Source: Calditrichota bacterium (GTDB lineage Bacteria; Calditrichota; Calditrichia; RBG-13-44-9). From it: DNA of 45,988 bases. The notes under the pieces are model-generated. The model saw nothing but the letters and a program-made list of their open reading frames with translations. It searched no databases and was not told the origin of the DNA. The stretch spans positions 1-45,988 of the forward strand of contig JAFGSO010000075.1 of NCBI GenBank assembly GCA_016934605.1, written 5' to 3'. Below are positions 8,818-31,873 of this stretch, piece by piece. Both the position numbers and the translations under genes were made by a program. Position 1 is the stretch's first letter. The number at the start of each line of letters is the position of its first letter.

Positions 8818-8848
8818 TTAGATCAATTCTCATACTAGAATGACAGGC

Positions 8849-11800
8849 TTATTTCAGCAACATCATTCTTTTGACCGTGCGGTGCTGGTTGGCCTGTACG
8901 TGATAGAAGTACATGCCGCTGGCCAGCCTGGAGGCATTAAACTGAATCTTATGATAACCCGGATTCAGTTTTCCGTTAAAGATTTCAGTCACTTTCTGGC
9001 CAAGCACATTATATACGGTAATCTTCACATCAGCCAGCTCCGGAATGGACAGATTGATGGTCGTTGTCGGATTAAACGGATTGGGATAATTCTGACTGAC
9101 CTCAAACCTTTCCGGAATCTGAACAAGATCCGTTTCAATAGCCACAAGCGTATCGTTGGATACCACCTTTTCGAAGCTGTATGAAGAGACACCATTATTG
9201 GTAATCAGCTCGATCAGGGAATTATTCACCGGACTATAAACTGCTCCGCCGGTGGCATTTCCGTTAGTGTTGGTTGAATATGCCGGTGTACCGGCAGGAA
9301 GCACTTCCAGCTGAGTACAGAGGCTGTCTCCCGGTTCTCCGAGCAGTTCAACTACCTTCGTCCCCGGACCGGTATGCCATCCGTTAGTAACGGAAACGAA
9401 GCGTCTGGTAGTATCATCCGTGGTAGTCACCTCAAAATAATTTATAGCTGTTCCGGAAACCACCGCGGTGTCGAATACATGCACTTCGGTACCATCCCGC
9501 TTGATATACCGTGGGGCGGTAAACGGGCCATTGATGAAGAAGTAATCGCTGTCTCCAACCCGGCTGATGCCATAGCGGGCGGCATCGGCTGTTGCCAGCG
9601 GAATGGTATCCGTTGGTACGAAGCTGTTTCCATCGGTGGTACCGAATACGTATATCTTATCTCCACCGCTGCCCGTTGTGTAAACTTCCACATCCAGCCC
9701 GGTTCCGCTCACGGCAAGGATATCGCCATTCCGATCGGTTAGCGGAGCACTGTGAACCAGCTGCATGGTTGCATTTTCATCGGCCCAGCGGTACAGATTG
9801 AAATTGCCGCCGGGAGATGACAGGTTGGATGCAAAAATCTGACCGTCTTCCGTAGCGGCAATAGCACTAATTTTGATATATCCACCCGAGACCAGGGCAG
9901 AGAGATCCATATCCGTCACAAAATCACCCGTCTGAGCGTCAAACGCCTTCACGTAATCACCAACTCCCTGCGGATGAGCCACAAAATAAAGGTGGTTGGT
10001 TGCCAGACTGTACGCGATAGTACGCGGAGCGTTAGCCGAGGCACCCATCCAGGCGGCGGTATCGGCCATGAGCCTCCACTCCAGCGGCCACAGTTCATAA
10101 CTGGAACCGGTGAGATAGATTTCATACTCTCCGACATTGGAATAAATCCGCATGGTATCGGTTAGTGTATCGGGATATAATGGAGCGTACGTCACCGGGA
10201 CAATCAGTGTGGAATCCGGTTCGATCACCGTACCACTGTCCAGTGTGGCAGACGTACTGAAGTGAGGTGACTGGAAGGTTACACCGGTTACTACAAAATC
10301 GGCTGACCCGATATTCTGAATAGAGAGGTCAAACGACTCACTGCCATTCACCGGAACGACACCAAAATCGTAACTGGTTGTGGAAAAGAGCGGAATGGCA
10401 ACATTCACGGACATGGTATAAGCTCCGACTCCGTTGTTGGTACCCAGCACATACAGCGTATAAGTACCGTCTCCGTTATCCTTGAAATCCACATCACCGG
10501 CACCATTGCCGTTGGTATTGGTACCGAGAGTCGGAGTTTCGCCGATACTGACCGCTCCGGCTGCTCCGGCAGTGACATCCAGCACTCTGGCATTTTCCTT
10601 ATTGAACCACTGATAGGTAATTACATAGGGTGTTCCGCCGGCTTCAAAATAGCGGATGGCACTGCTGCCGGTGCCAACCAGATCACCACTGATGCTTCCC
10701 AGCGTATCACCGGTACTGGTTACTTCATAGGGATTAATACCGTTGCCGTTCACATAAAAGTCAACAGCACCGAAATCTTTGGGGCCAACTGACGGCATGG
10801 AGCCGAAGCTGGCAATATTGGTCACGGTAATTTCAGCAGGAGTAGCGTTGAATGTTCCGCCACTCATGGTCCATTTCAGAACAATATTGCTGTTAGCAGC
10901 TGCAGCGTACACCTCCGCCGTTCCGGCCGAATAATCTCCCACTACGGTCAGTTTATCTCCCAGACGATAGGCATTGGGATTGTTGAAAACAATCACCTCT
11001 TCCCGAACGGCCGTTTCACTATCCCACTTATATACCTTGAAGTCACCGGTGATAAACGGCGGCGCAATCAGGTTGCATCCGAAGATGATGCCATCATCGG
11101 AAACTTCCACGTCTTCCACCCGGGTGCCGCTCTGGTTCAGCACACCAACCGAATCTCCGGTGGCAGCATCCAGAATCACCACGCCGGAAGTACCATGATT
11201 TGCCACATAGATGCGCTCATTGCGGCCGACCATTCCATAGGCCAGTGCACGGCGGGAATCCCCGGTGTCAAACCAGCCGGGCAAATTTCCCTGAGCGGCG
11301 GACAGTTCCCACACCGTGTCAAATGCTGGCGGAGGCACCGTTACATCAATGACATCCAGTGAATCACGGGGCGCCAGTTTATAGTCATCGAAGGAAAAAT
11401 ATCCGCATCCGGTGACATCATAGGCATTCCCACTGTCCGGCACAAAAGCATACATCAGATCGTCAATTCGTATAGCCCCGGTACCGTCATCAATCTCCCA
11501 TTCGCCGTAACCAAGATCAGGATTGGTGCAGATGGCGTTAGACACTGACACCAGAACGCCTTCATATTTTTCCTGCGGATACTCACCGGTCGTGATAGCC
11601 TCGGCGGCCGGCAAGATATTCCCACTGGAATTAATATTCAGGGAGACAATATTTTTCAATTCGGTGAGATCATAATATTCATCCACTTCGGCAATAATAG
11701 TGATATCATCACCCCGCTGGACAGTGGGTACACTTCCGGTATAAACATAGACACCGTTCCATCCACCGGGAGCATCCTGTAAAAAGAATCCCTGAGAACC

Positions 11801-13840
11801 CACACCGGTAACAAGACCGGAAGTCCTCACCGTGTCCCCTTCCAGCGGAGACGGACCGGCAAGACTATCGGAAGTTAGCTGAATCTCAGCAATGGTAACG
11901 GTGGGAATCACCACACCCGGTACTTCCACATTCCAGGCAGCAATACCATTATTGGTGATCAGCTGGAACAGGGTGATAGTATTATCCGGATTGCTTTTAA
12001 TCGCAATTTCAGCTGCGGCATTGGCATTGGTATTATACACATTCGATAGTTGAGCCCGTGAATAAAAATCCGGATTCACCTCGTCTCCGGTGATGTCCCA
12101 CATCTGGACCTGTTTTCCCAGAGAAGTACTGTTGTTACCGGCAATGGCAACAAATTTACTGCCGGCACCGGTCTCAACATAACGGACATTGTACCAGGAT
12201 CCCGAAACAATACCGGTATTAATCTGGGCAATATTGTTTCCGCTGGCATCGATGTGAGTAACAGGTGTACCGGAGCCATTCACCCATAATTCCGCTGCCA
12301 AACCGCTGCCGATGGGCGAAATGCCACCACGGGCAAGTCCGGCTGCGGAAAGAGGAATGGGGGTGTCTTCGGTGAAATTAATGCCATCCGTTGTGGTATA
12401 GCGATAAATACTGGAATTGCCGGATCCGCTGGCATAAAGCACCGTATTTACTCCCGTTCCCGATACATTAATCACATCTCCGGCCCGACCCGGTACAGTG
12501 TCGAGCACAGCAACCGTGGGAACAGCAGTTTCATTTTCCCAGCGATAGATCTTGAAAACACCATTGGCCAGAGCCAGGTTACACAGGTAAATAACCCCAT
12601 CGTCATCTGCTTTAACAATATTGATGGGATAAGTTCCGCCACTCACGCCGGTCATATCCAGCTGACCCAGAGAATCACCGTTCGCGGGATCCAGGATATA
12701 GACGTTGGGTGCTCCGGTCCGGCTGGCCACCAGCACATGATCTGTTGCCAGATTGTAGGCCAGTCCTCTCATATTATTGTCATTGGCTATGAAGGAGAGA
12801 GACCCCACACTTTTTTCCCACAGTCTGTTGAAAAATGACGGTTCAACTGTCCAGCGGGCAATTCCGTTATTGGTTACCAGCTGATAGACCGTGAGTGTTC
12901 CATCAGTATTTTCCAGCAGCTGAACATCAGCTGTAGCATTGGTATTGGCGTTATAGACATTGGTCAGCTCCACTGTGGCATACCAGGTGGGATTGACTTC
13001 GTCATCGGTCACATCCCAGATCTGAACCTGGCGACCCAGACTGGTGCTGTTATTTCCAACTACGGCTACAAACTTTTTGCCGGCAGAAGTCTCAATATAA
13101 TCCACATTGAACCAGGAACCGGACACCACACCGGTATTAATCTGCGCAACATTCGTCCCCGCCGCGTCCACATGCGTTACGGGTGTGCCGGACCCATTGA
13201 CCCATACCCCGGACGATAATCCGGTGCTAATCGGGGAGATACCGCCACGGGCCAGACCGGCAGCAGAGAGCGGAATAGGGGTGTCCTCAGTAAAATTAAT
13301 ACCATCTGTTGTGGTATAGCGATAGATACTCGAATTTTGTGATCCGCTGGCATAAAGCACCGTATTTACTCCCGTTCCAGAAACATTCATGACATCACCT
13401 GCACGGGCAGTTACTGAATCTTCCACTGCAACTGTGGGCGTTGCCGTTTCATTCTCCCAGCGATAAATTTTCAATACATAGGAACCAATGGCTGGCACTG
13501 CCAAGTTACAGACATAGATCACTCCATCGTCATCTGTACGGACGATATTAATGGGATATGTTCCACCACCCACACCCGTCATATCCAGTTGGCCCAGAGA
13601 ATCACCGTTTGCAGCGTCCAGGATATAGACATTGGGAGCGCCGGTCCGGGTCGCTACCAGCAGGTGATCCGAGACGGGATTATAGGCCATGGCACGGGTG
13701 TTGTTATCTGCCACAAACCAGGTAAAGGAACTGTCGCTCTTTTCCCATTCCTTTGTTACGTAAGACTGCGGTAAAGCAATTGTGCTCATCATGCCAATCA
13801 GCACGATGATCAGGGTAACGTAAAAAAATTTTTGCTGCAT
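8849..13840 (-). CDS. Giant secreted T9SS cargo protein: four copies of a ~300-aa module, an OB-fold-like insert, an Ig-like domain and a C-terminal sorting domain
   Basis: The ORF is open to 13894. The ATG at 13840 is preceded by AGGAGG and begins a signal peptide (MQQKFFYVTLIIVLIGMMSTIALPQ). The C-terminus is SQNYPNPFNPTTTINL...GMYFYHV...KRMMLLK. Confidence 0.85.
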   Translation of the reverse strand: MQQKFFYVTLIIVLIGMMSTIALPQSYVTKEWEKSDSSFTWFVADNNTRAMAYNPVSDHLLVATRTGAPNVYILDAANGDSLGQLDMTGVGGGTYPINIVRTDDDGVIYVCNLAVPAIGSYVLKIYRWENETATPTVAVEDSVTARAGDVMNVSGTGVNTVLYASGSQNSSIYRYTTTDGINFTEDTPIPLSAAGLARGGISPISTGLSSGVWVNGSGTPVTHVDAAGTNVAQINTGVVSGSWFNVDYIETSAGKKFVAVVGNNSTSLGRQVQIWDVTDDEVNPTWYATVELTNVYNANTNATADVQLLENTDGTLTVYQLVTNNGIARWTVEPSFFNRLWEKSVGSLSFIANDNNMRGLAYNLATDHVLVASRTGAPNVYILDPANGDSLGQLDMTGVSGGTYPINIVKADDDGVIYLCNLALANGVFKIYRWENETAVPTVAVLDTVPGRAGDVINVSGTGVNTVLYASGSGNSSIYRYTTTDGINFTEDTPIPLSAAGLARGGISPIGSGLAAELWVNGSGTPVTHIDASGNNIAQINTGIVSGSWYNVRYVETGAGSKFVAIAGNNSTSLGKQVQMWDITGDEVNPDFYSRAQLSNVYNTNANAAAEIAIKSNPDNTITLFQLITNNGIAAWNVEVPGVVIPTVTIAEIQLTSDSLAGPSPLEGDTVRTSGLVTGVGSQGFFLQDAPGGWNGVYVYTGSVPTVQRGDDITIIAEVDEYYDLTELKNIVSLNINSSGNILPAAEAITTGEYPQEKYEGVLVSVSNAICTNPDLGYGEWEIDDGTGAIRIDDLMYAFVPDSGNAYDVTGCGYFSFDDYKLAPRDSLDVIDVTVPPPAFDTVWELSAAQGNLPGWFDTGDSRRALAYGMVGRNERIYVANHGTSGVVILDAATGDSVGVLNQSGTRVEDVEVSDDGIIFGCNLIAPPFITGDFKVYKWDSETAVREEVIVFNNPNAYRLGDKLTVVGDYSAGTAEVYAAAANSNIVLKWTMSGGTFNATPAEITVTNIASFGSMPSVGPKDFGAVDFYVNGNGINPYEVTSTGDTLGSISGDLVGTGSSAIRYFEAGGTPYVITYQWFNKENARVLDVTAGAAGAVSIGETPTLGTNTNGNGAGDVDFKDNGDGTYTLYVLGTNNGVGAYTMSVNVAIPLFSTTSYDFGVVPVNGSESFDLSIQNIGSADFVVTGVTFQSPHFSTSATLDSGTVIEPDSTLIVPVTYAPLYPDTLTDTMRIYSNVGEYEIYLTGSSYELWPLEWRLMADTAAWMGASANAPRTIAYSLATNHLYFVAHPQGVGDYVKAFDAQTGDFVTDMDLSALVSGGYIKISAIAATEDGQIFASNLSSPGGNFNLYRWADENATMQLVHSAPLTDRNGDILAVSGTGLDVEVYTTGSGGDKIYVFGTTDGNSFVPTDTIPLATADAARYGISRVGDSDYFFINGPFTAPRYIKRDGTEVHVFDTAVVSGTAINYFEVTTTDDTTRRFVSVTNGWHTGPGTKVVELLGEPGDSLCTQLEVLPAGTPAYSTNTNGNATGGAVYSPVNNSLIELITNNGVSSYSFEKVVSNDTLVAIETDLVQIPERFEVSQNYPNPFNPTTTINLSIPELADVKITVYNVLGQKVTEIFNGKLNPGYHKIQFNASRLASGMYFYHVQANQHRTVKRMMLLK
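11921..13753 (-). repeat. Intragenic tandem duplication (two ~920-nt copies) encoding repeat modules 1 and 2 of the giant protein
   Basis: Residues ~48-356 and ~357-658 are highly similar. The DNA copies retain a 38-nt identical run (12423-12460 and 13341-13378, offset 918 nt). Confidence 0.85.
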
Positions 13841-13921
13841 AATGTACCTCCTGCTTTTTGGATGAATTTTATATGCCTGAATGATGCCGGACAATTAAAT
13901 GAGAATATTATCAGATAAGTA

Positions 13922-15190
13922 TTAAACCTCCTCTGTTAGCTTTATTGTTTTTCGGGAGTGATTGAAATTTCGTTTTAAGGGGGGTTCAAATATCAAGCGT
14001 AATGCCATGTTCACAGCCCCGGTAATACAGGCAGAATTTCCCAGTTCCCCAATAACAATTGAGGTTTTCTGAAATGGAATATTCAGCATCTGCTGCTTGA
14101 CAAGTTGTCTTACTTTCTGTAGCAGATAGTCTGAGTTCTCTACAACATTGCCACTCAGGATCACCAGATTTGGATTCATGGTTTTCAGCAGATTGGTACA
14201 TATCACAGCAATCAGAAATGCATATTCGTCAAGAACTTCCTGAACAGCCGGATTTCCACGATCGCCTTCCTTTAACATCGATTTCAGATTGCCATTTTGC
14301 ATTTTTTTATCTGTATTACCGGAATTCCACTGCAGTTTCATCTTGAGGGTTTCGTAAAGATGCTCCTCGCGAAGAATCTCTCCGAAATAATGCTGATTGG
14401 CATACAGGTTTTTCAGGTATTCTCTATTGGCAAGACAATGTCCCAGTTCCAGGTAACCGATTTCTCCGGCACTCCCGCTATTACCACGGATCAGATGATT
14501 ATCTACAATGATTCCAGCACCGATTCCGGCACCGATCCAGATACAAATGAGGTTGGATTCATTACGCCCCGCTCCTGCCAGGTGTTCTCCCGTGGCCATC
14601 GCATTTACATCATTTTCCAGGATGGTTGTTATCCCGAAACGTTCAGTGAATCGGTCACTTATGGGTATATTTCCCCATCCAGTCAGCGTATCTGCAAAAT
14701 GGAGATAACCTTTTTGGTAATTCACTATTCCCGGAATTCCAATCCCGATTCCGGTGAGCCGGGAAACGTCGATATTCAGTTTAGTCAGTAAGCTGTCAAT
14801 CTCCCGGACAACCCGATCGAACCAGGTATCAAAAGAAATACCGGCATTATAATCAAAAATATGTTCCCCCAGAATGTGAGATTCAATATTCGCCAGAGCA
14901 AAATGAGTCATTTTTCGCTTAATATCAATTCCGATTACATAACTGCTTTCCGGATTCAGCCTTATCAGGGTGGGACGTTTCCCCCCTCTTTCAGTTGATT
15001 CCCCTTTTCCTATTTCCATCACATAACCGGCTTCCACCAATCTGTTCACAATATCGGATATGGCCACCTTGGAAATGGTTGTCTGATTTGCGAGTTCGAT
15101 CCGGGAAATCTGCTCATGTTCACGGATAAGATTCAGGATTCTAAATTCGTTTAGTTCTTTAATCAGTTTCGAATTCGCTTTTCTGTCCAT
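13922..15190 (-). CDS. ROK-family transcriptional regulator (NagC/XylR-like) lacking the canonical zinc motif
   Basis: 422-aa ORF. The N-terminal winged-HTH region reads ISRIELANQTTISKVAISDIVNRLVEAGYV. ROK glycine-rich blocks are GIGIGIPG and GIGAGIIVDNHLIRGNSGSAGEIGY. No CxCGxxGC motif follows. Confidence 0.75.
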   Translation of the reverse strand: MDRKANSKLIKELNEFRILNLIREHEQISRIELANQTTISKVAISDIVNRLVEAGYVMEIGKGESTERGGKRPTLIRLNPESSYVIGIDIKRKMTHFALANIESHILGEHIFDYNAGISFDTWFDRVVREIDSLLTKLNIDVSRLTGIGIGIPGIVNYQKGYLHFADTLTGWGNIPISDRFTERFGITTILENDVNAMATGEHLAGAGRNESNLICIWIGAGIGAGIIVDNHLIRGNSGSAGEIGYLELGHCLANREYLKNLYANQHYFGEILREEHLYETLKMKLQWNSGNTDKKMQNGNLKSMLKEGDRGNPAVQEVLDEYAFLIAVICTNLLKTMNPNLVILSGNVVENSDYLLQKVRQLVKQQMLNIPFQKTSIVIGELGNSACITGAVNMALRLIFEPPLKRNFNHSRKTIKLTEEV

Positions 15191-15227
15191 CTTTTTCCCT
15201 GCATATAACGATTAGTGAGCTTAAATT

Positions 15228-17081: not shown

Positions 17082-17107
17082 CAATATCAATCCCCTCAAA
17101 AGACTGA

Positions 17108-17134
17108 AACCGTCCCGAATGAATCAGGACGGTT
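17108..17134 (-). other. Intercistronic stem-loop between the 656-aa cargo gene and GHL10 paralogue 1
   Basis: AACCGTCC (17108-17115) pairs with GGACGGTT (17127-17134). An alternative pairing GAATGAA (17117-17123) with TTCATTC (17133-17139) overlaps it. Only a weak T-run follows on the minus strand. Confidence 0.35.
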
Positions 17135-17153
17135 CATTCATATCTCAGTAAAC

Positions 17154-19124: not shown

Positions 19125-19150
19125 GGAAATACCTCCTCCAGATTTATGTA

Positions 19151-19831
19151 TTAAAAATAGTATCGCAGAGCTACTGAAAGATTTACCGTCTGAAATCCGG
19201 AAACACCTTCCAGTTCAATATTGGGTTGCAGAGTCGGATACAGATCCCCCAGAACAAAACGATAACAGGCCAGTATATCCATGGCAATTGCAGAACTTAC
19301 CGGAATTTCAAATCCGATGCCGCTTCGGAAACCCCAGTTAGCCTCTTCCAGGGTTTTTTGATCAATGTGCGGTACAGCCGGTTGTACAGTAGTATCCGCC
19401 TGCACTTCTCCGCGGATGCCCTTCCAGTAAAAAACTCCTGCTGCCAGATTTATATAGGGCTTTATTATCGAGATTTGTCCCAGACTGTAACGGCCTGATA
19501 CCAGTAATCCAATATGCTCCAGCGAAAGTTCCAGTTTATCTTTCGGATAGCCTTCCAAATTTTCCCGGTCAAATTTTGTATATTCTATAAGTCCTTCAAT
19601 AAACCAGTTTTCATTATACTTTTGCCCCACCGAGATACCTGCATCCGGAGCCGGTTTAAACCAGTCAGCCAGACCTCCGATCGGACGTGAATAATTTCCG
19701 AAAATAGACATACCCCATTCACCTGTAGATTGGGCGGGAGATTGAATCGGAAATGCCACAAATAAAAGGAAAATGGAAACCAGGAGTTGCGGGCTTTTTT
19801 GAAGAAATACTTTCTTGAGTTCAGAGATCAT
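19151..19831 (-). CDS. Small outer-membrane beta-barrel protein
   Basis: 226-aa ORF with a signal peptide, an alternating amphipathic pattern rich in G/Y/F, and a terminal LRYYF (C-terminal aromatic residue typical of OMPs). Confidence 0.55.
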   Translation of the reverse strand: MISELKKVFLQKSPQLLVSIFLLFVAFPIQSPAQSTGEWGMSIFGNYSRPIGGLADWFKPAPDAGISVGQKYNENWFIEGLIEYTKFDRENLEGYPKDKLELSLEHIGLLVSGRYSLGQISIIKPYINLAAGVFYWKGIRGEVQADTTVQPAVPHIDQKTLEEANWGFRSGIGFEIPVSSAIAMDILACYRFVLGDLYPTLQPNIELEGVSGFQTVNLSVALRYYF

Positions 19832-19862
19832 TTTATCATTCCGTTTAACGGCGCCATTCCAT

Positions 19863-20690
19863 CTAATATTTAAAGTTTAAACCAATGGTGAACTTTGTTT
19901 TAGAGCGAAGAGGAAACCAGATCTCTCCACCGGCTGAGAGATGCAATAAATCTTCCAGCCAACCGACTTCATCCCGGTCAAAATAGTGCTGATAATGAAA
20001 AGCAAAGTGTAAATCCAGACCGGGGGTTAGAAAAAACCGGGTTCCCAGTACAGGCTCGGCAAAAATTTTCTGTCCCTCCCGGGATGGTGCAAAGTGAGTA
20101 AGTTCATATTTGTATTCATAATCAAACTTCTGTTCATTGTCCGGATCCAGATTGAATCGCTTGGTCCAGTTCTCAGTCATCTTCAGTTCACGGTAAAAGA
20201 GACTGATACCGGCATTCAAACCAATAAAAGGGTAAAATTTTCCAACTGCCGGCAACTTATATTCCAGACCGGTGGAAAACCTGACTTCCTTTAATTGTTG
20301 TGTGGGATGAAAAGTAGCCGAGTAGATACTGTCTCCGCTGGTATATTCCAGGGTAGCATTCAGTTCCTGGGGCGTAATTCCCGGGAGGAAATCCACATAA
20401 GTATCCTCCCAGTAATCCCAGTTCCACTCAAACAGTACGTCGTCCTGAGTGAGATTCATTTGCTCATAATCAAGTCGAAAATTCAGATCGAATCGGGATG
20501 AGATAGCATAGTTAAACTGTCCGCTCAGTCCAAAGCCGCTGGCCGACCTGGCTTTGTAGGACTCATTCTGGAATTCATAACCTCCGAAAAGCTTAATAGA
20601 TATGGGTTTATCCTGAGCAACTCCCCTGAATGGAATGCAAAACATACAAATGAGAAAGATTACAGATATATTAAAATGTGTTTTCATCAT
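19863..20690 (-). CDS. Outer-membrane beta-barrel protein
   Basis: 275-aa ORF with a signal peptide (MMKTHFNISVIFLICMFCIPFRGVAQ), beta-strand-like alternation and a terminal GLNFKY. Confidence 0.5.
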   Translation of the reverse strand: MMKTHFNISVIFLICMFCIPFRGVAQDKPISIKLFGGYEFQNESYKARSASGFGLSGQFNYAISSRFDLNFRLDYEQMNLTQDDVLFEWNWDYWEDTYVDFLPGITPQELNATLEYTSGDSIYSATFHPTQQLKEVRFSTGLEYKLPAVGKFYPFIGLNAGISLFYRELKMTENWTKRFNLDPDNEQKFDYEYKYELTHFAPSREGQKIFAEPVLGTRFFLTPGLDLHFAFHYQHYFDRDEVGWLEDLLHLSAGGEIWFPLRSKTKFTIGLNFKY

Positions 20691-20698
20691 CTTTTACA

Positions 20699-21667
20699 TT
20701 AAAAATCGATTGAAAACGAATACCGTAATGTGGTATCCAGATAATCGTGGTTCATATAGGCGACATCGATACCCGCGGTTTTATTCATGATATTGAGGCG
20801 AAGTCCGGCTCCAAGACTGAGGTTTTCGTCATCATAACCAAGCTTGTATCCGCCACGGAAGATAACCAGGTCCATAAGTATGGCTTCCATACCGAAATGC
20901 ACCCGTTCTGCCGCATCATTAGGATGAATTGCCTCTGCCAGAAAAGTCACATGTGTGGGAGATTCCAGACCACCCAGCAGGTCATAGGATAGCCCGAATT
21001 TGAGCTGTTGCGGCATCTTGAATTTTTCATTAACATATTTGGCTTCCAGCCCGAAATCCTTTAAAAAGGCACCGATGCGGAGAGAGCGGAAACCGGTATT
21101 GTAGTAGAAACCAATATCCATAATTATATTATCTGCATGTTCGATATCGATGGTTTCGCGGACATATTTAAAAGTTGTTCCGAAGGAGAATTTGTCGGTC
21201 AACCGGCGGGAATAGGTCAATCCGGTGGCAAAAGCACCGGCAGTGTAGGTACCCATATCAAAATATTCACCGAATTCACCACGATTCGGATATAAATTGC
21301 GTGTTTTCTGAATCTCACCAAAATCAAAATAAATGAACTGCAGCCCCAGAGTACCCACACCGGGGATCTGATAAGTGAGTCCTAGCGCTTGATGACTGGT
21401 TTCCACATACCATTCGGAGTAGGTCAGGTTTATGGAAAATTTTGACTGTGTATATGCAACCAGTGCCGGATTGAGGAAAAGACCTTCGGCCTGAGCGTCC
21501 GGAAGAGTAATTCCCGCCTCTCCCATTGCCATCGATCTCGCCGTCACCGGAATCTCCAGAAACACAAATCCCGTCGTTCCGGCTTTGTCAAAATCCTCAG
21601 CCTGAACCGGATTGATAATCAAAAAAACAAACAGGATAATCGAACAGATTATAATATATTTTATCAT
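20699..21667 (-). CDS. PorV/PorQ-family (FadL-like) outer-membrane protein
   Basis: 322-aa ORF with a signal peptide. The N-terminal block AGTTGFVFLEIPVTARSMAMGEAG...FLNPALVAY resembles the PorV/PorQ signature. The C-terminus is FSIDF. Confidence 0.6.
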   Translation of the reverse strand: MIKYIIICSIILFVFLIINPVQAEDFDKAGTTGFVFLEIPVTARSMAMGEAGITLPDAQAEGLFLNPALVAYTQSKFSINLTYSEWYVETSHQALGLTYQIPGVGTLGLQFIYFDFGEIQKTRNLYPNRGEFGEYFDMGTYTAGAFATGLTYSRRLTDKFSFGTTFKYVRETIDIEHADNIIMDIGFYYNTGFRSLRIGAFLKDFGLEAKYVNEKFKMPQQLKFGLSYDLLGGLESPTHVTFLAEAIHPNDAAERVHFGMEAILMDLVIFRGGYKLGYDDENLSLGAGLRLNIMNKTAGIDVAYMNHDYLDTTLRYSFSIDF

Positions 21668-21673
21668 AATATT

Positions 21674-23719
21674 TCAATTGATTATGGCAAATTTACCCTT
21701 AACAGTCTCCCCTTCAGAACTGGTTACCACATAGAAATACATCCCGCTTTTTACATAAAGACCATTTTCGCTGATCTGATTCCACGAAGCGATGCCGGAT
21801 TCGCTATCCTGATGTTCGATAGTTTTTATCAGATCTCCCCGGAGAGTATAGATACGGATGGTGCATCTGGCCGGAAGGCCTTCAAACTGAATTCTTTTTA
21901 AGTCTCCTGCCAGAGCAAAGCCGGAACTGCGGTAGAAGGGATTCGGCACAACCGTTACTTCATCCAGTTTATCTGTTGCCAGCAGCCTGGTATAAAAGGG
22001 TGCCGATTTACGATTAGCATAAATTGATGATTCCAGGGAGGGCACACTCACAGCAGAATTGATTGCCCAGGAATCCTGACCGGAATCGAAACTTGTCACC
22101 GAATAGTAATAACCGTATCCCAGGGCAACCCGGGCATCCAGGTAAACATATTTCTGTTCTTCCGGACTATAATAGCGTGAATCCCTTACCGGAAGTGTGG
22201 CAATTTTTTCCCACGGACCAAACGAATAACGACCGGATCGATAAATATGGTAACCGACAACATCCGGTGTTCCCTGATGTGGATCGTTGATCGACTCAAT
22301 CGAATTATCAAATTCGATGATATTACCTACCGAAGTTTCATTTGTCCGGATGGTAAATGAAGGGCCCGGAGGAGGCATCGGTACAGTATAATTATGATCG
22401 TAGTTAAAGCGAATCCTGTCGCTCAGATAAGCAACCGCAGAGTCTCCTCTCTGCTTTACCGTCTGCGCAGTTGCGCCTCCACCGAAAGCCTCTTCATACC
22501 TCATGCCACCAACAAATTCGGCCACCACCACTTTCACACTGTCCGCTTCCCTTCTGGCCAGATTGAAAGGTCCCAGGGAAAAATTAACATAGAGCCGGTT
22601 CTGTCCCATTCGCGGATCATCCGGATTCTGGAAAGCCTCGGATAGAAGAAGCGGATTTGCCATGGCATCATATTTATTATCAAGGCCCGCTACACCCAGA
22701 AACGGTCCGGAATGATCCTGGCTGGGAGATGCGGCAGACCAGGCAAAGCCATTAATGGTGTTTTCTCTTCCCAGAGAATCCGGCGATATATATAGAAATT
22801 TGATACCGGTATAACCGGGTGCCAGAAACTCCGGTCTGATAACATTGCGGTTTTCCACCGGATCGTATTCAAGATGTTCAAAATAATCAAACGATTCATT
22901 CACTCCCGGTGTATCTGTATAGTCACCTGCCCAGCAAACCACCTGTCGGTTTTGCGGATCGTAACTGCTGTGTGTATTTCGTGCTCCTGCCGGCAGATTG
23001 GGAAATGTCAGGTTCCAGCCCCGATGAGTTGGACCAACCGCCCAGGTAAACAGCAGATAAACACCTTTCAGATCGTTGCGTCTCTGGGTATTTTTGATGG
23101 AATATTCGGTAATGATATAATTTTCGTCAGCTTTTGAACCGGACCACTGGCGGGCCGTACGTCGCACTTTCACCGGAATATTCTGATTATCCCATGGCTG
23201 AAACCACTCACCGTTGATTTCCCACTGGGTCACAATCACATCTTCCGCTTCCCGGGGATCTGTCAGCAACCAGTAGTTCTCTCCGTTGGAAAATTTCCGC
23301 CGATGAATCAGCTCATCGTTTTCATCCCGGGAAATCAGATAGCGGAATTCTGCTCCGGCTGTCCCGACTGTGGTGCCGTGAGTTGCGAAATTATCACAGC
23401 CCCAGACACTTCCGGTATCGGTGAGTGCAGTAATGAAAAAACCACCGGCCACCAGGTAGCTGTAACTTCCTCCTATATCCTGTTTTACTTCATCGGTGCG
23501 GTATCCGGGCCAGTCGAGGCCATAGGTCTTGCGCTGCCAGTCCGCCATCGGTTCGCATTCCTGGGCCAGATTGAAAGCATGCCACAAGGCTCCGCGGGTA
23601 AAACTGATCGTATTGGCAAATTCCTGTGCTGCAATCTGATTCTGGCTCGATAAAAAAGCTGCCATTACGATGGGAAGAAATTCAGATCGTTTCAGAAGTG
23701 TTTTAAAAAATTCTATCAT
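21674..23719 (-). CDS. Secreted protein of unknown function with T9SS sorting-domain-like tail, encoded directly downstream of the TonB-dependent receptor
   Basis: 681-aa ORF with a signal peptide. The last ~95 aa (VVPNPFY...CTIRIYTLRGDLIKTI...GMYFYVV...KGKFAIIN) follow the sorting-domain motif order. I recognise no family for the body of the protein. Confidence 0.6.
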   Translation of the reverse strand: MIEFFKTLLKRSEFLPIVMAAFLSSQNQIAAQEFANTISFTRGALWHAFNLAQECEPMADWQRKTYGLDWPGYRTDEVKQDIGGSYSYLVAGGFFITALTDTGSVWGCDNFATHGTTVGTAGAEFRYLISRDENDELIHRRKFSNGENYWLLTDPREAEDVIVTQWEINGEWFQPWDNQNIPVKVRRTARQWSGSKADENYIITEYSIKNTQRRNDLKGVYLLFTWAVGPTHRGWNLTFPNLPAGARNTHSSYDPQNRQVVCWAGDYTDTPGVNESFDYFEHLEYDPVENRNVIRPEFLAPGYTGIKFLYISPDSLGRENTINGFAWSAASPSQDHSGPFLGVAGLDNKYDAMANPLLLSEAFQNPDDPRMGQNRLYVNFSLGPFNLARREADSVKVVVAEFVGGMRYEEAFGGGATAQTVKQRGDSAVAYLSDRIRFNYDHNYTVPMPPPGPSFTIRTNETSVGNIIEFDNSIESINDPHQGTPDVVGYHIYRSGRYSFGPWEKIATLPVRDSRYYSPEEQKYVYLDARVALGYGYYYSVTSFDSGQDSWAINSAVSVPSLESSIYANRKSAPFYTRLLATDKLDEVTVVPNPFYRSSGFALAGDLKRIQFEGLPARCTIRIYTLRGDLIKTIEHQDSESGIASWNQISENGLYVKSGMYFYVVTSSEGETVKGKFAIIN

Positions 23720-23757
23720 GACTTCAATACTTTACTTTATATGCTTTTTTTCTCACG

Positions 23758-26670
23758 TTAAAACAGGAATCCGACAGTAAAAAATACCTGACGGGGAATA
23801 TTTCTCCAGGTTTGATAATAGTTGTAAAGCCGGAGATCCCGGTTGGGATCGTTTCCGGGATCCGCATATGTGACGCTTCTCAGGACATAGCGATCCAGTT
23901 CTTCCTGCTCACTGATGGGCGTCAAATGCCGGTTATCGAACAGATTGTAGACCCGAATTCCCAGTTTAAGCTGAACATCCCCCAGCGGTTGAGTTTTTTC
24001 AATTCGCAGGTCGGTCTGGGATTCGGAGGGATATCGCCGGTTAGATTCCACATTGTATTCGTATTGATATTCAGGGGACCAGAAATAAGCCAGACCGCTG
24101 CGTATGGCCACGATGAGACTCACAGAAGTATTTTCCAGCGGCTGAATATTCAGCAAACGGAATCCGGCATCATCCGGAAAATTGTAAGTGAGAGAGGCGT
24201 TCAGACGATGAGTCCGATCCTCCGGAGCCAGGTAATCGCTGGCCGAATAAGTATATTTCTGTTCCAGTTCGGGTGGCAGATCAGGACGAATCAGATAAAC
24301 CCCATACTGACCATAGCTGGCCTGACTCAGAGTATAGGCAAATCGATAACGCCAGTTACCGGGAGTCCTGTTCGAAAAACTGATCTCAATCCCCCGGGTA
24401 TTTCCATATCCGTTATTCTCGTAACTGATATAGCTTTGTTTCAAATCGTCTGGCTTATTAACACTCCCGGTTGAACTGGCAATATAAACCAGAGAAATCT
24501 GATCGACCAGGTCGTTGTAATAGGTCACCACATCCAGTTGATGGGTTCCCCACAGGTTTTTTTGTACACCCACTTCATAATTTATGCTCAGTTTCGGTTT
24601 CAGATTCGGATTACCGTAACTGCCCCATCCGTTAAAAGTCTGATTATCCAGCGCCTGGTTAATTGTTGGCATAGATCGGAAATGCCCATACTGGACCCGG
24701 AATGCTGTGGTTTCGCCGATGGGGAAGGATAATCCCAGACGCGGAGATAACACTGTAAATGTTTTGGACGGTTCCCACTCCGGAATGCCCACACTATTGC
24801 TCCCCAGTGCCGGATAAAAGACATTATATTTATCCACTGGAACATCCGCACCAAAATTATAGGCATCGAACCGGACGCCAAGATTGGCCACCATTCCGGC
24901 AAATTCTAGCTTATCCTGTAAATAACCCGCCGTATACCAGGTATCGGCTTTATAGTTGGTAGCAAAACCGGTACGCCAGATAAATGCCGAAACACTGAGG
25001 GAGGAGGATGCGTTATAATTTTGATCCATCAGGGATGCTTCGAGACCAGCCTTTAAAAGATTGGTTTTGGTCAGCTGAACCGAATAATTGATCTTTCCTT
25101 CATAGAAATTAGTGATGGATGCCTGATTGTACAAACTTGACCAGGTATAATACTCACGATATTTTTCATTCCACGGTCCACGATCTTCCAGTACTCGGTC
25201 CTCCGGATCCGGATGAAGCTGAACATCCTTGTCCCACCCGGGAGTGGGCGTTTGATAAGCATACAATACTTCATTCTGCCAGGTGAAAGTAGTTTCCAAA
25301 AATGAAGTAGGCGAAAAAATAAGTTTATAATTAAGACTGGTAGCGAAAACAGTTTCATCGCGGGGAGAGTCGTACACCAGAGTGTACTTTCGTTTTGCTC
25401 CATACTGTCCCCATAAGCCTGCCCAGCGGACATCATCGGATCCTGAACCCATTCCGGAATAAAATTTCTGATACAGTCCGGTGACTTTCAGATTATGATT
25501 TGCATTTGGTTTCCAGGCAAGAACAAGGGAATAATTCTGTTTTTTCTGAACCTGCTCATTGGTTGGCAGTCGAGTGGGTTTAAAAAGCAGTTCACCCGAT
25601 ATAAAGAATGTCATGTCCTGGCTCAATTTGCCCAGAGGACCACCCAGGCTGAACAGATAGCGGTGATAGGGATTTTGACGGTAATCATAAACGCCCAGCG
25701 GGTTGTCATCAGACGGTGTATGATTCTGCACCCACAGGTTGTAATTTCGCCATGCTTCGGCGGTATCTATTGTTGCCACGCCACCAGTGGTATCCTGAAA
25801 TTGCGGCTGCTGAAGCCACACATTAAAATCGCCCCATTTTCGCCATTCAAACTGATTTTTCGAATACAGGTAATCTCCCCAGTGATACTGACCGGAAGGC
25901 CTGTATTCTACAGACAGCCCGCCGAAAAATCTGGTATCCCCTTCTTTCATCACCACATTTACCACCCCGGACTGGGCATTGCCGTATTCGGCATTAAAAC
26001 CGCCGGTAATCACCTCCATTTGAGAAACCGCCAGCGGGTTAACGTCATATTTCCAGCTGTTTTCCGACTTCGTGCCGGTACCGTAAGCCGGCACTCCCGA
26101 ATTGGTTGTAACGCTCTTAATTCCGTTTATACTGTAATTGATCTCATAGGCCCCTCCCCCACGAATACTCATTGTTCCGTCCGCGTTTTTGGAAACACCC
26201 GGAGTCAGTTCAAGTACATTTCGCAGGTTTTCCACCGGCAGATTCGCAACCTCCTTTGCTTCAAAATTCAGTGACGAAGAGGTTTTGTCAGCTTCCACAA
26301 TGGGTCGTTCGGCGGTAACCGTTACTGTTTCACCAAATTCCAGAGCAGCTGCCGCCATGGTAATATTTATATTTGTGGTACGATCCAACCTCACCATTAC
26401 ATTTTCGACCGTAACATTCTGATATCCGATATAAGTAAACAGGAGTTGATTGTTCCCAGGCGGGACATTCAGGATAATATACCAACCATCCGCATCGGTT
26501 GCAGCGCCCAGATGAGTTCCCACCACTGTGACATTCACTCCGATAAGAGGTTCACCGGATTCCTTATCGGTCACCTGTCCGGCAATTTTCCCGGTTCCCT
26601 GAGATAAAACTATTGAAAAAAGAAAGAATATGAGAAAAATAGAGGAAAGCGTTAAGCGGAAAAAGGTCAC
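23758..26670 (-). CDS. TonB-dependent outer-membrane receptor with N-terminal carboxypeptidase-regulatory-like domain
   Basis: 970-aa ORF with a GTG start preceded by AAGGTG, and a signal peptide. The N-terminal region GKIAGQVTDKESGEPLIGVNVTVVGT...DADGWYIILNVPPG is CarboxypepD_reg-like. A plug-like region follows (TVTAERPIVEADKTSS). The barrel ends in VGFLF. Confidence 0.85.
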   Translation of the reverse strand: MTFFRLTLSSIFLIFFLFSIVLSQGTGKIAGQVTDKESGEPLIGVNVTVVGTHLGAATDADGWYIILNVPPGNNQLLFTYIGYQNVTVENVMVRLDRTTNINITMAAAALEFGETVTVTAERPIVEADKTSSSLNFEAKEVANLPVENLRNVLELTPGVSKNADGTMSIRGGGAYEINYSINGIKSVTTNSGVPAYGTGTKSENSWKYDVNPLAVSQMEVITGGFNAEYGNAQSGVVNVVMKEGDTRFFGGLSVEYRPSGQYHWGDYLYSKNQFEWRKWGDFNVWLQQPQFQDTTGGVATIDTAEAWRNYNLWVQNHTPSDDNPLGVYDYRQNPYHRYLFSLGGPLGKLSQDMTFFISGELLFKPTRLPTNEQVQKKQNYSLVLAWKPNANHNLKVTGLYQKFYSGMGSGSDDVRWAGLWGQYGAKRKYTLVYDSPRDETVFATSLNYKLIFSPTSFLETTFTWQNEVLYAYQTPTPGWDKDVQLHPDPEDRVLEDRGPWNEKYREYYTWSSLYNQASITNFYEGKINYSVQLTKTNLLKAGLEASLMDQNYNASSSLSVSAFIWRTGFATNYKADTWYTAGYLQDKLEFAGMVANLGVRFDAYNFGADVPVDKYNVFYPALGSNSVGIPEWEPSKTFTVLSPRLGLSFPIGETTAFRVQYGHFRSMPTINQALDNQTFNGWGSYGNPNLKPKLSINYEVGVQKNLWGTHQLDVVTYYNDLVDQISLVYIASSTGSVNKPDDLKQSYISYENNGYGNTRGIEISFSNRTPGNWRYRFAYTLSQASYGQYGVYLIRPDLPPELEQKYTYSASDYLAPEDRTHRLNASLTYNFPDDAGFRLLNIQPLENTSVSLIVAIRSGLAYFWSPEYQYEYNVESNRRYPSESQTDLRIEKTQPLGDVQLKLGIRVYNLFDNRHLTPISEQEELDRYVLRSVTYADPGNDPNRDLRLYNYYQTWRNIPRQVFFTVGFLF

Positions 26671-26681
26671 GGAGGCACCTT

Positions 26682-26710
26682 TTAGTTAGTATAGTTAACT
26701 TAATAACTAA
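26682..26710. promoter_or_regulatory. Nested palindrome TTAGTTA-N15-TAACTAA enclosing AGTTAACT (candidate operator in the receptor-operon leader)
   Basis: The outer 7-bp arms are at 26682-26688 and 26704-26710, and the inner perfect palindrome AGTTAACT is at 26693-26700. It lies between the predicted -10 box and the GTG start. Confidence 0.35.
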
Positions 26711-26713
26711 CAA

Positions 26714-26742
26714 AGTTTATTGATTCACAAACAAAAAGTCAA
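26714..26742 (-). promoter_or_regulatory. Predicted sigma70-type promoter of the receptor/T9SS operon
   Basis: The minus strand reads TTGACT (26742-26737), a 17-nt spacer, then TAAACT (26719-26714). The -10 box lies about 45 nt upstream of the GTG start. This is a consensus match only, with no transcript data. Confidence 0.4.
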
Positions 26743-30264: not shown

Positions 30265-30369
30265 CTCTCTTACTAACTCTTTTTCAGCTTGATAAACCAA
30301 TCCATCATGTTTTATATTCATGAAGTTTTGTGATATTATTACCAATTCCACATAAAATATACGACTTTG

Positions 30370-31845: not shown

Positions 31846-31873
31846 AGACTACTAATCTTTATGCAATCAATCA

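Follow-up and report, generated by a model that had tools for sequence, protein, structure and literature searches.

A conserved gene module joining a TonB-dependent receptor to a protein with a T9SS-type C-terminal domain and a PorV/PorQ-family barrel in Calditrichota and related phyla

In a 45,988-nucleotide stretch of a Calditrichota metagenome-assembled genome (contig JAFGSO010000075.1, hereafter the window), we found that a TonB-dependent receptor (TBDR) gene is followed by genes for a 681-aa protein, here called X, and a PorV/PorQ-family outer-membrane barrel. The same triplet recurs in related genomes, at least 60 of them, which represent about ten phyla. Based on its gene order, predicted structure, and pattern of conservation, we propose, with a probability of about 0.5, that X is exported by the T9SS, held on the barrel via an uncleaved C-terminal domain (CTD), and acts as the lid or binding partner of the TonB transporter. 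The triplet looks like a T9SS-based counterpart of the SusC/SusD nutrient-capture pair.

Results

Nine co-directional ORFs occupy the minus strand from 26670 to 8849. Rechecking of their coordinates bore out the first-pass annotation, including its range of 6 to 81 nt for the gaps: with the longest ORFs, the gaps are 38, 6, 8, 31, 26, 54, 37, and 27 nt, and starting the final gene at its first ATG (13840; 1663 aa) would widen the last gap from 27 to 81 nt. Profile searches also reproduced the domain assignments of the nine products. The features of the locus, in order of transcription and then upstream and downstream of it, are as follows.

23758..26670, minus strand: TBDR, 970 aa, with signal peptide, CarboxypepD_reg-like N-terminal domain, plug, and 22-strand-type barrel
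21674..23719, minus strand: X, 681 aa, with Sec signal peptide, beta-sandwich, FN3-like domain, and atypical long T9SS CTD
20699..21667, minus strand: PorV/PorQ-family (FadL-superfamily) outer-membrane barrel, 322 aa (NF033709, 188.4 bits; cutoff 90)
19863..20690, minus strand: omp275, small outer-membrane beta-barrel, 275 aa (weak PF13505 match)
19151..19831, minus strand: omp226, small 8-stranded outer-membrane beta-barrel, 226 aa (PF13505, 31.8 bits)
17154..19124, minus strand: 656-aa T9SS type A cargo protein (PF18962, 36 bits; TIGR04183, 34 bits; weak DUF5018)
17107..17135, minus strand: hairpin with 12-bp stem and T-run, in the gap that separates the 656-aa gene from the GHL10 gene
15228..17099, minus strand: GHL10 (DUF187-type) glycosidase-like protein with Golvesin_C and type A CTD, surface or secreted (PF02638, 205 bits; PF25275; PF18962)
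13922..15190, minus strand: ROK-family regulator with N-terminal wHTH, NagC/Mlc-like (PF00480, 144 bits; HTH_24/MarR)
8849..13894, minus strand: 1681-aa ORF (1663 aa from the ATG at 13840) with three DUF5018 domains, Ig-like/choice-of-anchor-D domains, and type A CTD
8787..8819, minus strand: strong terminator-like hairpin with 14-bp stem and T-run, 3' of the last gene
26682..26710, no strand assigned: candidate operator, a perfect palindrome (TTAGTTA-N15-TAACTAA) lying 12 nt ahead of the TBDR start codon
27182-28348, minus strand: GHL10 protein without CTD, upstream on the same strand, recurring with the module
28345-30246, minus strand: FAD-dependent oxidoreductase, upstream on the same strand, recurring with the module
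30367..37438, plus strand: divergent unit of four genes, recurring with the module in many loci

The first-pass annotation placed all nine genes behind one predicted sigma70 promoter (26742-26714). Its 9/12 match is no better than chance, and we rejected it as support for one operon, since promoter-like sites in the region (36) are not above the shuffled background (31.6 ± 5.5). The hairpin and T-run at 17135-17107, possibly an internal terminator or attenuator, place a single transcription unit for the nine genes in doubt. The palindrome is the only one of its kind in the window, and 15% of shuffled sequences yield one; it is missing from all 83 related loci, and we rejected it as a conserved operator. 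Rfam and tRNA scans of the whole window were empty.

The nine-gene architecture proposed as the unit in the first-pass annotation gave way to a smaller conserved core of three genes (TBDR-X-PorV-like), or five with the small barrels. At loci with room for the comparison, X is immediately preceded by the TBDR gene in 54/54 orthologous and 12/12 distantly paralogous cases and immediately followed by a PorV/PorQ-family barrel gene in 58/60 orthologous and 16/16 paralogous loci. An exception is locus L025, which carries TBDR-X without a PorV-like gene. Both small barrels come next in 40 of 45 orthologous loci (the omp275 position is kept in 41 of the 45) and are missing from Kryptonia loci and from the distant paralogues. 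The order receptor, 681-aa homologue, PorV-like barrel, which the first-pass annotation had suggested checking, is near-exceptionless across about ten FCB-group lineages, with record labels that include Calditrichota, KSB1, Ignavibacteria, Kryptonia, Neomarinimicrobiota, Rhodothermales, Latescibacterota, Zixibacteria, Gemmatimonadota, and Delongbacteria. TBDR, X, and barrel co-diversify (Mantel r, 0.88-0.95), and their nearest neighbors agree. Several copies occur per genome, and these within-genome paralogues are diverged in all three core genes. We verified one carrier in culture, Roseithermus sacchariphilus (locus L080). Rhodothermus marinus (Rmar_1070-1073) is a literature lead for another.

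The receptor matches PF13715, PF07715, and PF00593. On the SusC/RagA model TIGR04056 it scores 72.9 bits, where the curated cutoff is 368.25; judged by this profile, it lies outside the SusC/RagA family, though related to it. X occupies what had been called the SusD slot, an analogy and not an expectation because the organism is a member of the Calditrichota, not of the Bacteroidia. The reported absence of SusD- and TPR-like proteins was confirmed, with no match among the 25 large ORFs scanned in the window.

The 322-aa barrel falls below the cutoffs of the PorQ (98.7 bits; cutoff 220) and PorV (89.8 bits; cutoff 250) models, so that by profile score it is a PorV/PorQ-family protein, yet neither a PorV nor a PorQ equivalog. 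It matched PorV from the PDB (6h3i_F) with an E value of 1.2e-8, and its BamG score was only 26 bits (cutoff 250). Its NCBIfam matches comprised only PorV/PorQ-related families and BamG, with no PorP/SprF among them. We propose that this barrel is a dedicated carrier or anchor for X. The AlphaFold2 (AF2) model of omp226 (pLDDT, 86) has eight strands, and Foldseek aligned it to OmpA (9fzd; E value, 6e-10; TMt, 0.72) as well as to OmpW, OmpX, and NspA. For omp275, assignment as a barrel is by homology only: it and the omp226 family are distant paralogues (hhalign probability, 96.9%; E value, 1.7e-10). Profile searches of the PDB returned no match for either small barrel.

The AF2 model of X (pLDDT, 90; pTM, 0.87) is predominantly beta, with a large beta-sandwich of ∼410 aa (residues ∼37-445), an FN3-like domain (∼455-545), and a seven-stranded CTD (∼589-681). 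A SusD-like fold was rejected by both the model and Foldseek. A lipobox was found in 0/43 and 0/13 X proteins, and a Sec signal is present; X is not the SusD-like TPR lipoprotein that the first-pass annotation had named as fatal to its proposal. We found no Pfam family for X, with only subthreshold matches in its CTD, and a PDB profile search gave only an insignificant FN3 match. The best Foldseek matches were PorU (6za2) and PorZ (5m11). However, only the C-terminal ∼100 residues match the PorZ (cutoff, 260) and PorU (cutoff, 420) models, locally and far below cutoff, and the body has a different fold; X is identified neither as PorU (a sortase) nor as PorZ (an A-LPS carrier).

The CTD of X differs from those of ordinary cargo. 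It scores 35.8 bits on the PorZ model NF052228, 24.1 on PorU, and 20.4 on the generic type A model TIGR04183 (cutoff, 23), with no PF18962 match, whereas the three cargo CTDs of the operon (656-aa, GHL10, and 1681-aa proteins) score 34 to 42 bits, above cutoff, on the generic model. On the type B model CHU_C (PF13585), X reaches 21.2 bits, below the cutoff of 27, a match that we regard as cross-noise because the 1681-aa type A cargo scores equally; no NCBIfam type B model (TIGR04131) matched. Membership of X and its barrel in the type B CTD/PorP-SprF systems was rejected on these profile scores. Within the X family (n = 63), the CTD is the most conserved domain (51.5% identity versus 38.9% for the N-domain), whereas in the cargo it is the least conserved part (35.6 versus 44.9 for the GHL10 enzyme; 42.8 versus 51.3 for the 656-aa protein). 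All X-family CTDs share VVPNPF, an insertion, and LPxxCTIxIY...GKFxII (in X itself, VVPNPF, an insertion, and GKFAIIN), where cargo instead has QNYPNPFNP. Counted from the NPF motif, the CTD of X is about 91 aa long versus 79-80 aa in the cargo. Uncleaved PorU and PorZ CTDs measure 96-108 aa and cleaved ones 67-88 aa (PMC11285876). Length alone is no proof of retention, because the insertion in X comes after strand 1, whereas the extra hairpin of PorU and PorZ comes after strand 5 and is reported to be functionally irrelevant (PMC11285876).

These features are consistent with a CTD that stays on the barrel. An alternative is that the barrel is a dedicated shuttle and not an anchor. It would then be a locus-specific T9SS carrier that takes X, and perhaps the other CTD proteins of the locus, from the translocon, and the CTD of X would afterwards be removed; X, released or otherwise attached, would bind or process glycan in soluble or loosely attached form and not as a partner bound to the transporter. 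PorV is a shuttle, PorP/SprF-like barrels, whose genes are linked to those of their cargo, have been called "specialized shuttles" (PMC12618676, PMC10202324), and in the AF2 model, the CTD of X is type-A-like in overall fold. We nevertheless consider this alternative unlikely. One would not expect a mere secretion signal to exceed every other domain of its protein in conservation, or to co-diversify with barrel and TBDR, and the barrel is unlikely to serve the generic cargo CTDs of the locus, given that they differ from that of X. In addition, the invariant adjacency of X and TBDR, paralogous families included, suggests that X and the transporter are physical partners.

For the N-domain of X, neither structure nor sequence gave a confident relative. 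Foldseek suggested GH94-type supersandwiches at a TM score of ∼0.25, and we rejected homology after a null hhalign comparison with the GH94 protein of the window. Many acidic and aromatic residues in this domain are invariant (W61, D69, N148, E159, W192, D198, R233, and W235, among others). X could be primarily a surface enzyme, i.e., a new glycoside hydrolase, lyase, or other depolymerase whose catalytic beta-sandwich, perhaps barrel-anchored, feeds oligosaccharides to the transporter, and the weak fold likeness to the supersandwich at the N terminus of three enzymes (GH94, GH116, and dextran dextrinase) points the same way. However, supersandwich domains are noncatalytic in the matched enzymes, the TM scores are low, sequence homology to the GH94 of the window was not found, and dedicated enzymes (GHL10) are already present in the locus. 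Across the X superfamily (381 cluster representatives at E<1e-30; about 4000 at E<1e-10), the N-domain varies widely and the C-terminal module is constant, as expected of a specificity or binding domain. We judge a primarily enzymatic role improbable.

The genes around the core point to amino-sugar catabolism as the context of the window. The 656-aa protein is probably a surface glycan-binding protein, and its orthologues come after the outer-membrane barrel pair in Calditrichota, KSB1, and Marinimicrobia loci; the 1681-aa protein is probably a large surface binder. GHL10 genes adjoin the core in most orthologous loci and, like the 656-aa protein, are frequent neighbors, whereas the ROK regulator (NagC, 148 bits; Mlc, 135 bits; both below equivalog cutoffs) and the 1681-aa protein are variable. 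Orthologues of the upstream CTD-less GHL10 protein and oxidoreductase adjoin the core in loci L001, L007, L008, L012, L014, and others. The divergent unit encodes a 492-aa protein of unknown function, a hydantoinase/oxoprolinase-like ATPase, a NagX-like DUF5009 membrane N-acetyltransferase, and a GHL10 protein with Golvesin_C. Co-localized enzymes, binders, and a regulator, as seen in polysaccharide utilization loci (PULs), are all present (three GHL10 proteins, GH38, GH94, NAGPA, DUF5018-type CTD proteins, and ROK), and the region is most likely a PUL-type locus, with an amino-sugar-rich glycan as its presumed substrate. The term "self-contained," used in the first-pass annotation, does not fit, as the module presupposes a T9SS encoded elsewhere (no T9SS core genes were found within the window) and catabolic genes flank it on both sides.

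This context bears on the very improbable reading that the module is not an importer accessory. The CarboxypepD_reg-type TBDR would then serve in the export or assembly of surface proteins, or a hydrophobic or amphiphilic compound would pass through the FadL-type barrel, and the "CTD" of X would be just an Ig-like domain. An Oar-type TonB-dependent transporter (TBDT) is reportedly needed for PopC secretion in Myxococcus (PMC6434023), PorV belongs to the FadL superfamily, and Latescibacterota homologues weakly match Toluene_X. However, most genomes have the module inside glycan-catabolic loci with regulators and CAZyme-like genes, the barrel scores well over the PorV/PorQ family cutoff, and the C terminus of X has the T9SS CTD features NPF...GKFxII(R/K/N) and co-occurs with bona fide type A cargo. 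A chance neighborhood of a SusD-less CUT-type TBDR locus and T9SS-related genes, conceivable given that SusD-less TBDR sugar loci are well known outside Bacteroidota (PMC1790865), is effectively refuted by near-perfect synteny and co-diversification, with order, strand, and adjacency kept in about ten phylum-level lineages and in deep paralogues.

Discussion

In the lid-or-partner mechanism that we favor, the CTD of X, unlike that of ordinary cargo, would be uncleaved and would stay on the neighboring PorV/PorQ-like barrel, bound as PorZ is on PorQ and PorU on PorV, which would tether X at the surface without a lipid anchor. The beta-sandwich, placed beside the TonB transporter, would serve as its extracellular partner, either a substrate-binding lid or a feeder, in a role functionally analogous to that of SusD with unrelated fold and anchoring. 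Capture and cutting of the polymer would fall to conventional T9SS cargo, namely the two DUF5018-type binders (656 and 1681 aa) and the GHL10 enzyme, and the ROK/NagC-like protein would regulate the unit. Catabolism would be completed by products of the flanking genes (NagB-like, NagX-like, NanE, GH94, phosphohexomutase, GH38, and NAGPA). The core idea of the first-pass annotation, a distinct capture, display, and import architecture, stands with respect to fold and gene order; several of its premises do not, and mechanism and substrate are what we infer.

SusC/SusD pairs are the accepted glycan-capture signature in Bacteroidota, and PUL-finding tools rely on them. As in those pairs, the gene for a TBDT with an N-terminal CarboxypepD_reg-like domain directly precedes that of an invariant extracellular partner, the surrounding genes encode surface binders, enzymes that degrade glycans, and a regulator, and the partner family is large with variable specificity regions. 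Unlike SusC/SusD, the module has a TBDR outside SusC/RagA, a partner with beta-sandwich, FN3, and CTD in place of the alpha-helical TPR lipoprotein SusD, and a third obligatory gene for the PorV-like barrel, and display would be by the T9SS and not by lipoprotein export.

In PorU-PorV and PorZ-PorQ, an uncleaved CTD holds the protein on a 14-strand barrel of the PorV/PorQ family (PMC10202324). The CTD of X matches those of PorZ and PorU best and is likewise longer than cargo CTDs. The X pair differs in that its barrel is neither equivalog, the body of X bears no relation to the beta-propellers of PorZ or the peptidase of PorU, CTD retention is presumed, and the pair goes together with a TonB transporter, in catabolic loci and in several paralogous copies per genome. 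For type B CTD cargo, an adjoining cognate PorP/SprF barrel carries out secretion and surface anchorage, e.g., SprB-SprF and PG1035-PorP (PMC9143113, PMC12618676). There, too, a cargo-specific outer-membrane barrel is encoded beside its cargo, but the CTD of X is not type B, its barrel is of the PorV/PorQ family, and the known pairs lack a TonB transporter. Given this linkage and the PorU/PorZ precedents, the first-pass statement that T9SS cargo is not normally co-transcribed with a PorV homologue was overstated.

Non-SusC TBDTs of Bacteroides have non-SusD lids, including BtuG, XusB, HmuY, and DUF4876, that are proposed to cap or feed the transporter (Price et al. 2023; bioRxiv 10.1101/2023.03.17.533168). 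These resemble X as conserved non-SusD extracellular partners adjoining a non-SusC TBDT. Unlike X, which shares the conserved adjacency and lacks a lipobox, all are lipid-anchored lipoproteins without a T9SS CTD or companion barrel, and none is homologous to X. In BamG-BamH, a barrel of the FadL/PorV superfamily, docked to a larger one, holds the surface protein as a canopy over BamA (PMC12611786, PMC12578637). By analogy, this may offer a structural precedent for barrel-mediated placing of X over the TBDR, although BamH is a lipoprotein and the system functions in outer-membrane protein biogenesis.

Our literature search found no description of a module of TBDR, CTD protein, and PorV-like barrel; coverage of subscription journals was partial, and absence from it is not proof. 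Pairs of cargo and dedicated barrel are already known (type B CTD/PorP-SprF), and the TBDR-coupled module looks undescribed. We tentatively suggest, with somewhat less confidence than for the placement of X itself, that TBDR-X-PorV-like could be a general, phylum-spanning third way of giving TonB transporters a surface partner, with the barrel docked to the transporter, as BamG is to BamA, and X as a substrate-specific lid. If so, thousands of X-family proteins with variable N-domains would replace or complement SusD in much of the FCB superphylum outside Bacteroidia, and PorV-family barrels would have a new, nonsecretory role.

Because cultured carriers exist, the hypothesis is directly testable. 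In FCB phyla other than Bacteroidota, including Calditrichota, KSB1, Ignavibacteriota, Marinimicrobia, Latescibacterota, Gemmatimonadota, and Rhodothermota, such loci are annotated as TonB receptors beside "hypothetical proteins," and these phyla are important in sediment, soil, hot-spring, and ocean settings. If the triplet works as a unit, it would provide a searchable marker for their nutrient-uptake loci and a role for the large, unannotated X superfamily. It would also extend the PorZ/PorQ-type arrangement of a retained CTD on a barrel from the secretion machine to nutrient acquisition, with surface complexes that are built independently of lipid.

Gene Content and Putative Transcription Signals

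The window is a complete contig (45,988 bp) from a Calditrichota metagenome-assembled genome. Its minus strand carries a run of nine ORFs between 26670 and 8849, separated by 38, 6, 8, 31, 26, 54, 37, and 27 nt, and their shared strand and tight spacing are real. The final gap becomes 81 nt when the last gene begins at its first ATG, which gives the 1663 aa of the first-pass annotation; otherwise the product has 1681 aa. Profile searches of the nine products reproduced the domain content previously assigned to them.

Products of the nine-gene run, in order (all minus strand)
23758..26670, TonB-dependent receptor (TBDR): CarboxypepD_reg-like domain, plug, and barrel; SusC/RagA model 72.9 bits versus a cutoff of 368
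21674..23719, 681-aa secreted protein (here X): no Pfam family; sorting-domain matches all subthreshold
20699..21667, PorV/PorQ-family barrel (PorV-like): NF033709, 188 bits (cutoff 90); distinct from both the PorV and PorQ equivalogs
19863..20690 (omp275) and 19151..19831 (omp226), two small outer membrane proteins (OMPs): OMP_b-brl
656-aa protein: type A T9SS C-terminal sorting domain (CTD) and a weak DUF5018 match
GHL10 enzyme: GHL10, Golvesin_C, and CTD
ROK/NagC-like regulator, with winged helix
1681-aa protein: three DUF5018 domains, Ig-like domain, and CTD

The reported absence of SusD- or TPR-like proteins also held, with zero profile matches among the 25 large window ORFs scanned. The two small OMPs are distant paralogs (hhalign 96.9%), and omp226 is modeled as an eight-stranded barrel (pLDDT 86) nearest to OmpA-TM, OmpW, OmpX, and NspA. 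They could act in complex stabilization, in anchoring, or as a small-solute channel.

Transcription from a single sigma70-type promoter, as proposed earlier, was not supported: the site at 26742-26714 is a 9/12 match, and the region holds 36 promoter-like sites versus 31.6 ± 5.5 after shuffling. Three other elements were located.

Putative transcription signals
26682-26710, perfect palindrome TTAGTTA-N15-TAACTAA, whose end lies 12 nt before the GTG start of the TBDR gene
17135-17107 (minus strand), hairpin with a 12-bp stem and T-run, between the 656-aa and GHL10 genes
8819-8787 (minus strand), strong terminator-like hairpin 3' of the last gene

Judging from sequence, the hairpin at 17135-17107 may serve as an attenuator or may separate the nine-gene run into two transcription units. 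The palindrome is a possible operator for the coencoded ROK/NagC-like regulator; it occurs once in the window, at least one such match arose in 15 of 100 shuffles, and none of 83 related loci carries a counterpart.

Conservation of the Triplet

Homologs of X were found in metagenome-assembled genomes labeled Calditrichota, KSB1, Zhuqueibacterota, and Marinimicrobia. Searching 1.84 billion cluster representatives with an X profile returned 381 matches at E<1e-30, 4031 at E<1e-10, and 10,771 at E<1e-3; in many of these the common part is limited to the final ∼300 residues (helix, FN3, and CTD), and the N-terminal regions differ. Pfam domains were wholly absent from 8 of 10 sampled superfamily members. 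We assembled related loci from three context look-ups and a genome scan (79 loci), scored them with HMMs built from the window proteins, and grouped them by the relation of their X.

Neighbors of X in related loci (orthologous; distant paralogous)
TBDR as the gene immediately upstream, counting loci with room: 54/54; 12/12
PorV/PorQ-family barrel as the gene immediately downstream: 58/60; 16/16
Both small OMPs following: 40/45; 2/13

Based on these neighbor counts, the conserved unit is the triplet TBDR-X-PorV-like, or in the orthologous group the quintet that includes both small OMPs, and not the whole nine-gene set. One of the two orthologous loci without an adjacent barrel has an inserted 150-aa ORF (L024), and the other is genuine: in a Calditrichaceae genome (L025, 5687-7816 and downstream), TBDR-X is followed by opposite-strand genes, with no PorV-like barrel within 10 kb. 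Four Kryptonia-type loci (L016, L017, L019, and L028) have orthologous triplets without small barrels, indicating that the module does not require the small OMPs.

Lineages named in the locus titles include Calditrichales, KSB1, Ignavibacteria/Melioribacteraceae, Kryptonia, Neomarinimicrobiota, and Rhodothermales, as well as Delongbacteria, WOR-3, Latescibacterota, Zixibacteria, and Gemmatimonadota. A cultured carrier is Roseithermus sacchariphilus (CP030158; L080, 11811-15772), in which Pfam confirmed TBDR (1148 aa), X (1048 aa), and PorV-like barrel (413 aa). There the genes after the triplet encode a TPR protein, a DUF4292 protein, and an M23 peptidase, not CAZymes, suggesting that the role of the module may extend beyond glycan uptake.

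The three proteins codiversified over a set of 61 complete triplets (Mantel r, 0.88 to 0.95), their nearest neighbors agree in the distant classes, and in same-genome paralogous triplets all three genes have diverged (24 to 39% identity). One Latescibacterota locus (L074, OZ244960.1, 4044644-4065675) has two tandem, deeply diverged triplets (30 to 39% identity) under a LacI-type regulator, and a second locus of that genome (L073, 543745-564776) shares with it a small-OMP/TBDR/X/PorV-like copy that is 98 to 100% identical, which indicates that the whole unit was duplicated both recently and anciently. At these two loci a small OMP lies ahead of the TBDR rather than after the barrel. Coincidental adjacency of the three genes is a very unlikely rival account of such an arrangement; given the neighbor counts and the codiversification, we conclude that the triplet is a real, widely conserved, unannotated outer membrane module.

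Predicted Structure of X and Its C-Terminal Domain

X, which is identical to EH225_02170, was modeled with AlphaFold2 from a 43-sequence alignment (pLDDT, 90; pTM, 0.87). The predicted fold comprises an N-terminal signal helix, a ∼410-residue beta-sandwich, an FN3-like domain, and a seven-strand C-terminal beta-sandwich. This non-TPR model and the lack of any SusD or TPR profile match bear out the earlier view that X is not SusD-like. Foldseek found no full-length structural relative in the PDB; its best E-values, for PorU (6za2) and PorZ (5m11), came via the C-terminal part. Less probably, X is an enzyme. Its N-domain bears a weak resemblance (TMq, ∼0.25) to the supersandwich domains that GH94, GH116, and dextran dextrinase carry, and those domains are noncatalytic. 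Sequence-level relation was found neither between the N-domain and the GH94 of the window nor between X and PDB chains. The signal peptide of X is of type I, and a lipobox was present in 0 of 43 family members and 0 of 13 distant relatives.

In NCBIfam searches the last ∼100 residues of X scored 35.8 bits for the PorZ CTD, 24.1 for the PorU CTD, and 20.4 for the generic type A model (cutoff, 23), while the CTDs of the three cargo proteins (the 656-aa, GHL10, and 1681-aa products) scored 34 to 42 on the generic model with no PorZ match. The X-family motif (VVPNPF, a 7- to 15-residue insertion, LPxxCTIxIY, and terminal GKFxII(R/K/N)) is kept even in distant paralogs and is unlike the cargo motif, QNYPNPFNPxT. 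Measured from the NPF motif, the CTD has ∼91 residues in X versus 79 to 80 in the cargo; for Porphyromonas gingivalis, published lengths are 96 residues for the PorZ CTD and 108 for that of PorU, both uncleaved, and 67 to 88 for processed CTDs (PMC11285876). The CTD is the most conserved domain of X (51.5% identity versus 38.9% for the N-domain; n = 63) and the least conserved in orthologous cargo (GHL10 enzyme, 35.6 versus 44.9; 656-aa protein, 42.8 versus 51.3). Based on profile scores, motif, length, and conservation, the tail of X appears anchor-like and not a disposable signal.

Proposed Mechanism

We propose that X would be exported via Sec followed by the T9SS, and that its uncleaved CTD would keep it on the dedicated PorV/PorQ-type barrel. 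There are precedents for such retention: the PorU CTD remains on PorV and that of PorZ on PorQ, and cognate PorV-like barrels have been proposed to shield CTDs from cleavage (PMC10202324). As a precedent for positioning by a barrel, FadL-type BamG keeps the surface protein BamH above BamA (PMC12611786). Less probably, the barrel serves as a shuttle only. If X is retained, its beta-sandwich/FN3 body would be positioned beside the TonB transporter to serve as its feeder or substrate-binding lid. Conventional CTD cargo, with the 656-aa and 1681-aa proteins as putative binders and the GHL10 enzyme, would capture and cut polymer, the transporter would take in oligosaccharides for the flanking enzymes, and the ROK protein would regulate the unit. 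A TBDR with an Oar-like export role (PMC6434023) is an improbable rival to this import scheme.

Flanking genes
170-2524 (plus strand), NagB-like deaminase fusion, 784 aa: no Pfam match; subthreshold NF002557 match, 204 bits (cutoff 384)
NAGPA phosphodiester glycosidase with CTD
HAD-family hydrolase
GH38
Second GHL10 and FAD oxidoreductase, same strand, upstream
30367-34033 (plus strand), 492-aa protein (no Pfam/NCBIfam family) and hydantoinase/oxoprolinase-like ASKHA ATPase
NagX-like DUF5009 glucosamine N-acetyltransferase
Third GHL10
NanE
GH94
Phosphohexomutase
Aminoglycoside-N-acetyltransferase-like protein
43977-44828 and 44874-45794 (minus strand), split Na+/solute symporter (PF00474)

The neighborhood is amino-sugar catabolic. 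GHL10 genes adjoin the orthologous core in most loci by HMM scoring, and the hydantoinase-like/492-aa pair, FAD oxidoreductase, DUF5009, NAGPA, GH38, and ROK genes also recur near it. The 492-aa/hydantoinase-like pair lies beside the TBDR module, mostly divergently, in many Calditrichota and Ignavibacteria loci. The 784-aa protein is an enlarged NagB-like fusion, NF002557 being named “glucosamine-6-phosphate deaminase-like protein.” The symporter ORFs, 45 nt apart, match the N- and C-terminal halves of PF00474, possibly reflecting a frameshift, pseudogene, or assembly error. Among GHL10 proteins, Escherichia coli DigH is active on denuded peptidoglycan. Characterized GHL10 members include peptidoglycan-cleaving Cwp19 (PMC6016235, PMC5765458) and starch-active DogH (PMC9967864). 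Our best guess for the substrate is a HexNAc/HexN-containing glycan, possibly cell wall material.

Relation to Known Systems

The module is functionally similar to SusC/SusD but has neither a SusC-family TBDR nor SusD. It likewise resembles the alternative lids, of lipoprotein type, that have been proposed for non-SusC transporters (bioRxiv 10.1101/2023.03.17.533168), although X is no lipoprotein. The proposed anchoring is like that of PorZ-PorQ and PorU-PorV, but the barrel is not a PorV/PorQ ortholog; type B CTD/PorP-SprF pairs share the anchoring principle, yet the CTD of X falls outside both type B and standard type A. Coupling to a TonB transporter distinguishes the module from all three of these pairings. 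Our full-text literature search, whose coverage was incomplete, found no description of the triplet, and an earlier one is possible.

In the xylan locus of Rhodothermus marinus, Rmar_1070 is annotated as a TBDR and the next three genes as encoding hypothetical proteins, of which Rmar_1071 has a signal peptide and a Por sorting domain and Rmar_1073 a sorting domain, with Rmar_1072 between them; a canonical SusC/D pair adjoins these genes (PMC6987092). Judged from published annotation, Rmar_1070-1073 probably represent this module, in a species that is in culture and has genetic tools and a defined xylan phenotype. The module combines two known principles and, since SusC/D pairs are present in Melioribacter and Rhodothermus (PMC3534657, PMC6987092), may coexist with Sus-like systems.
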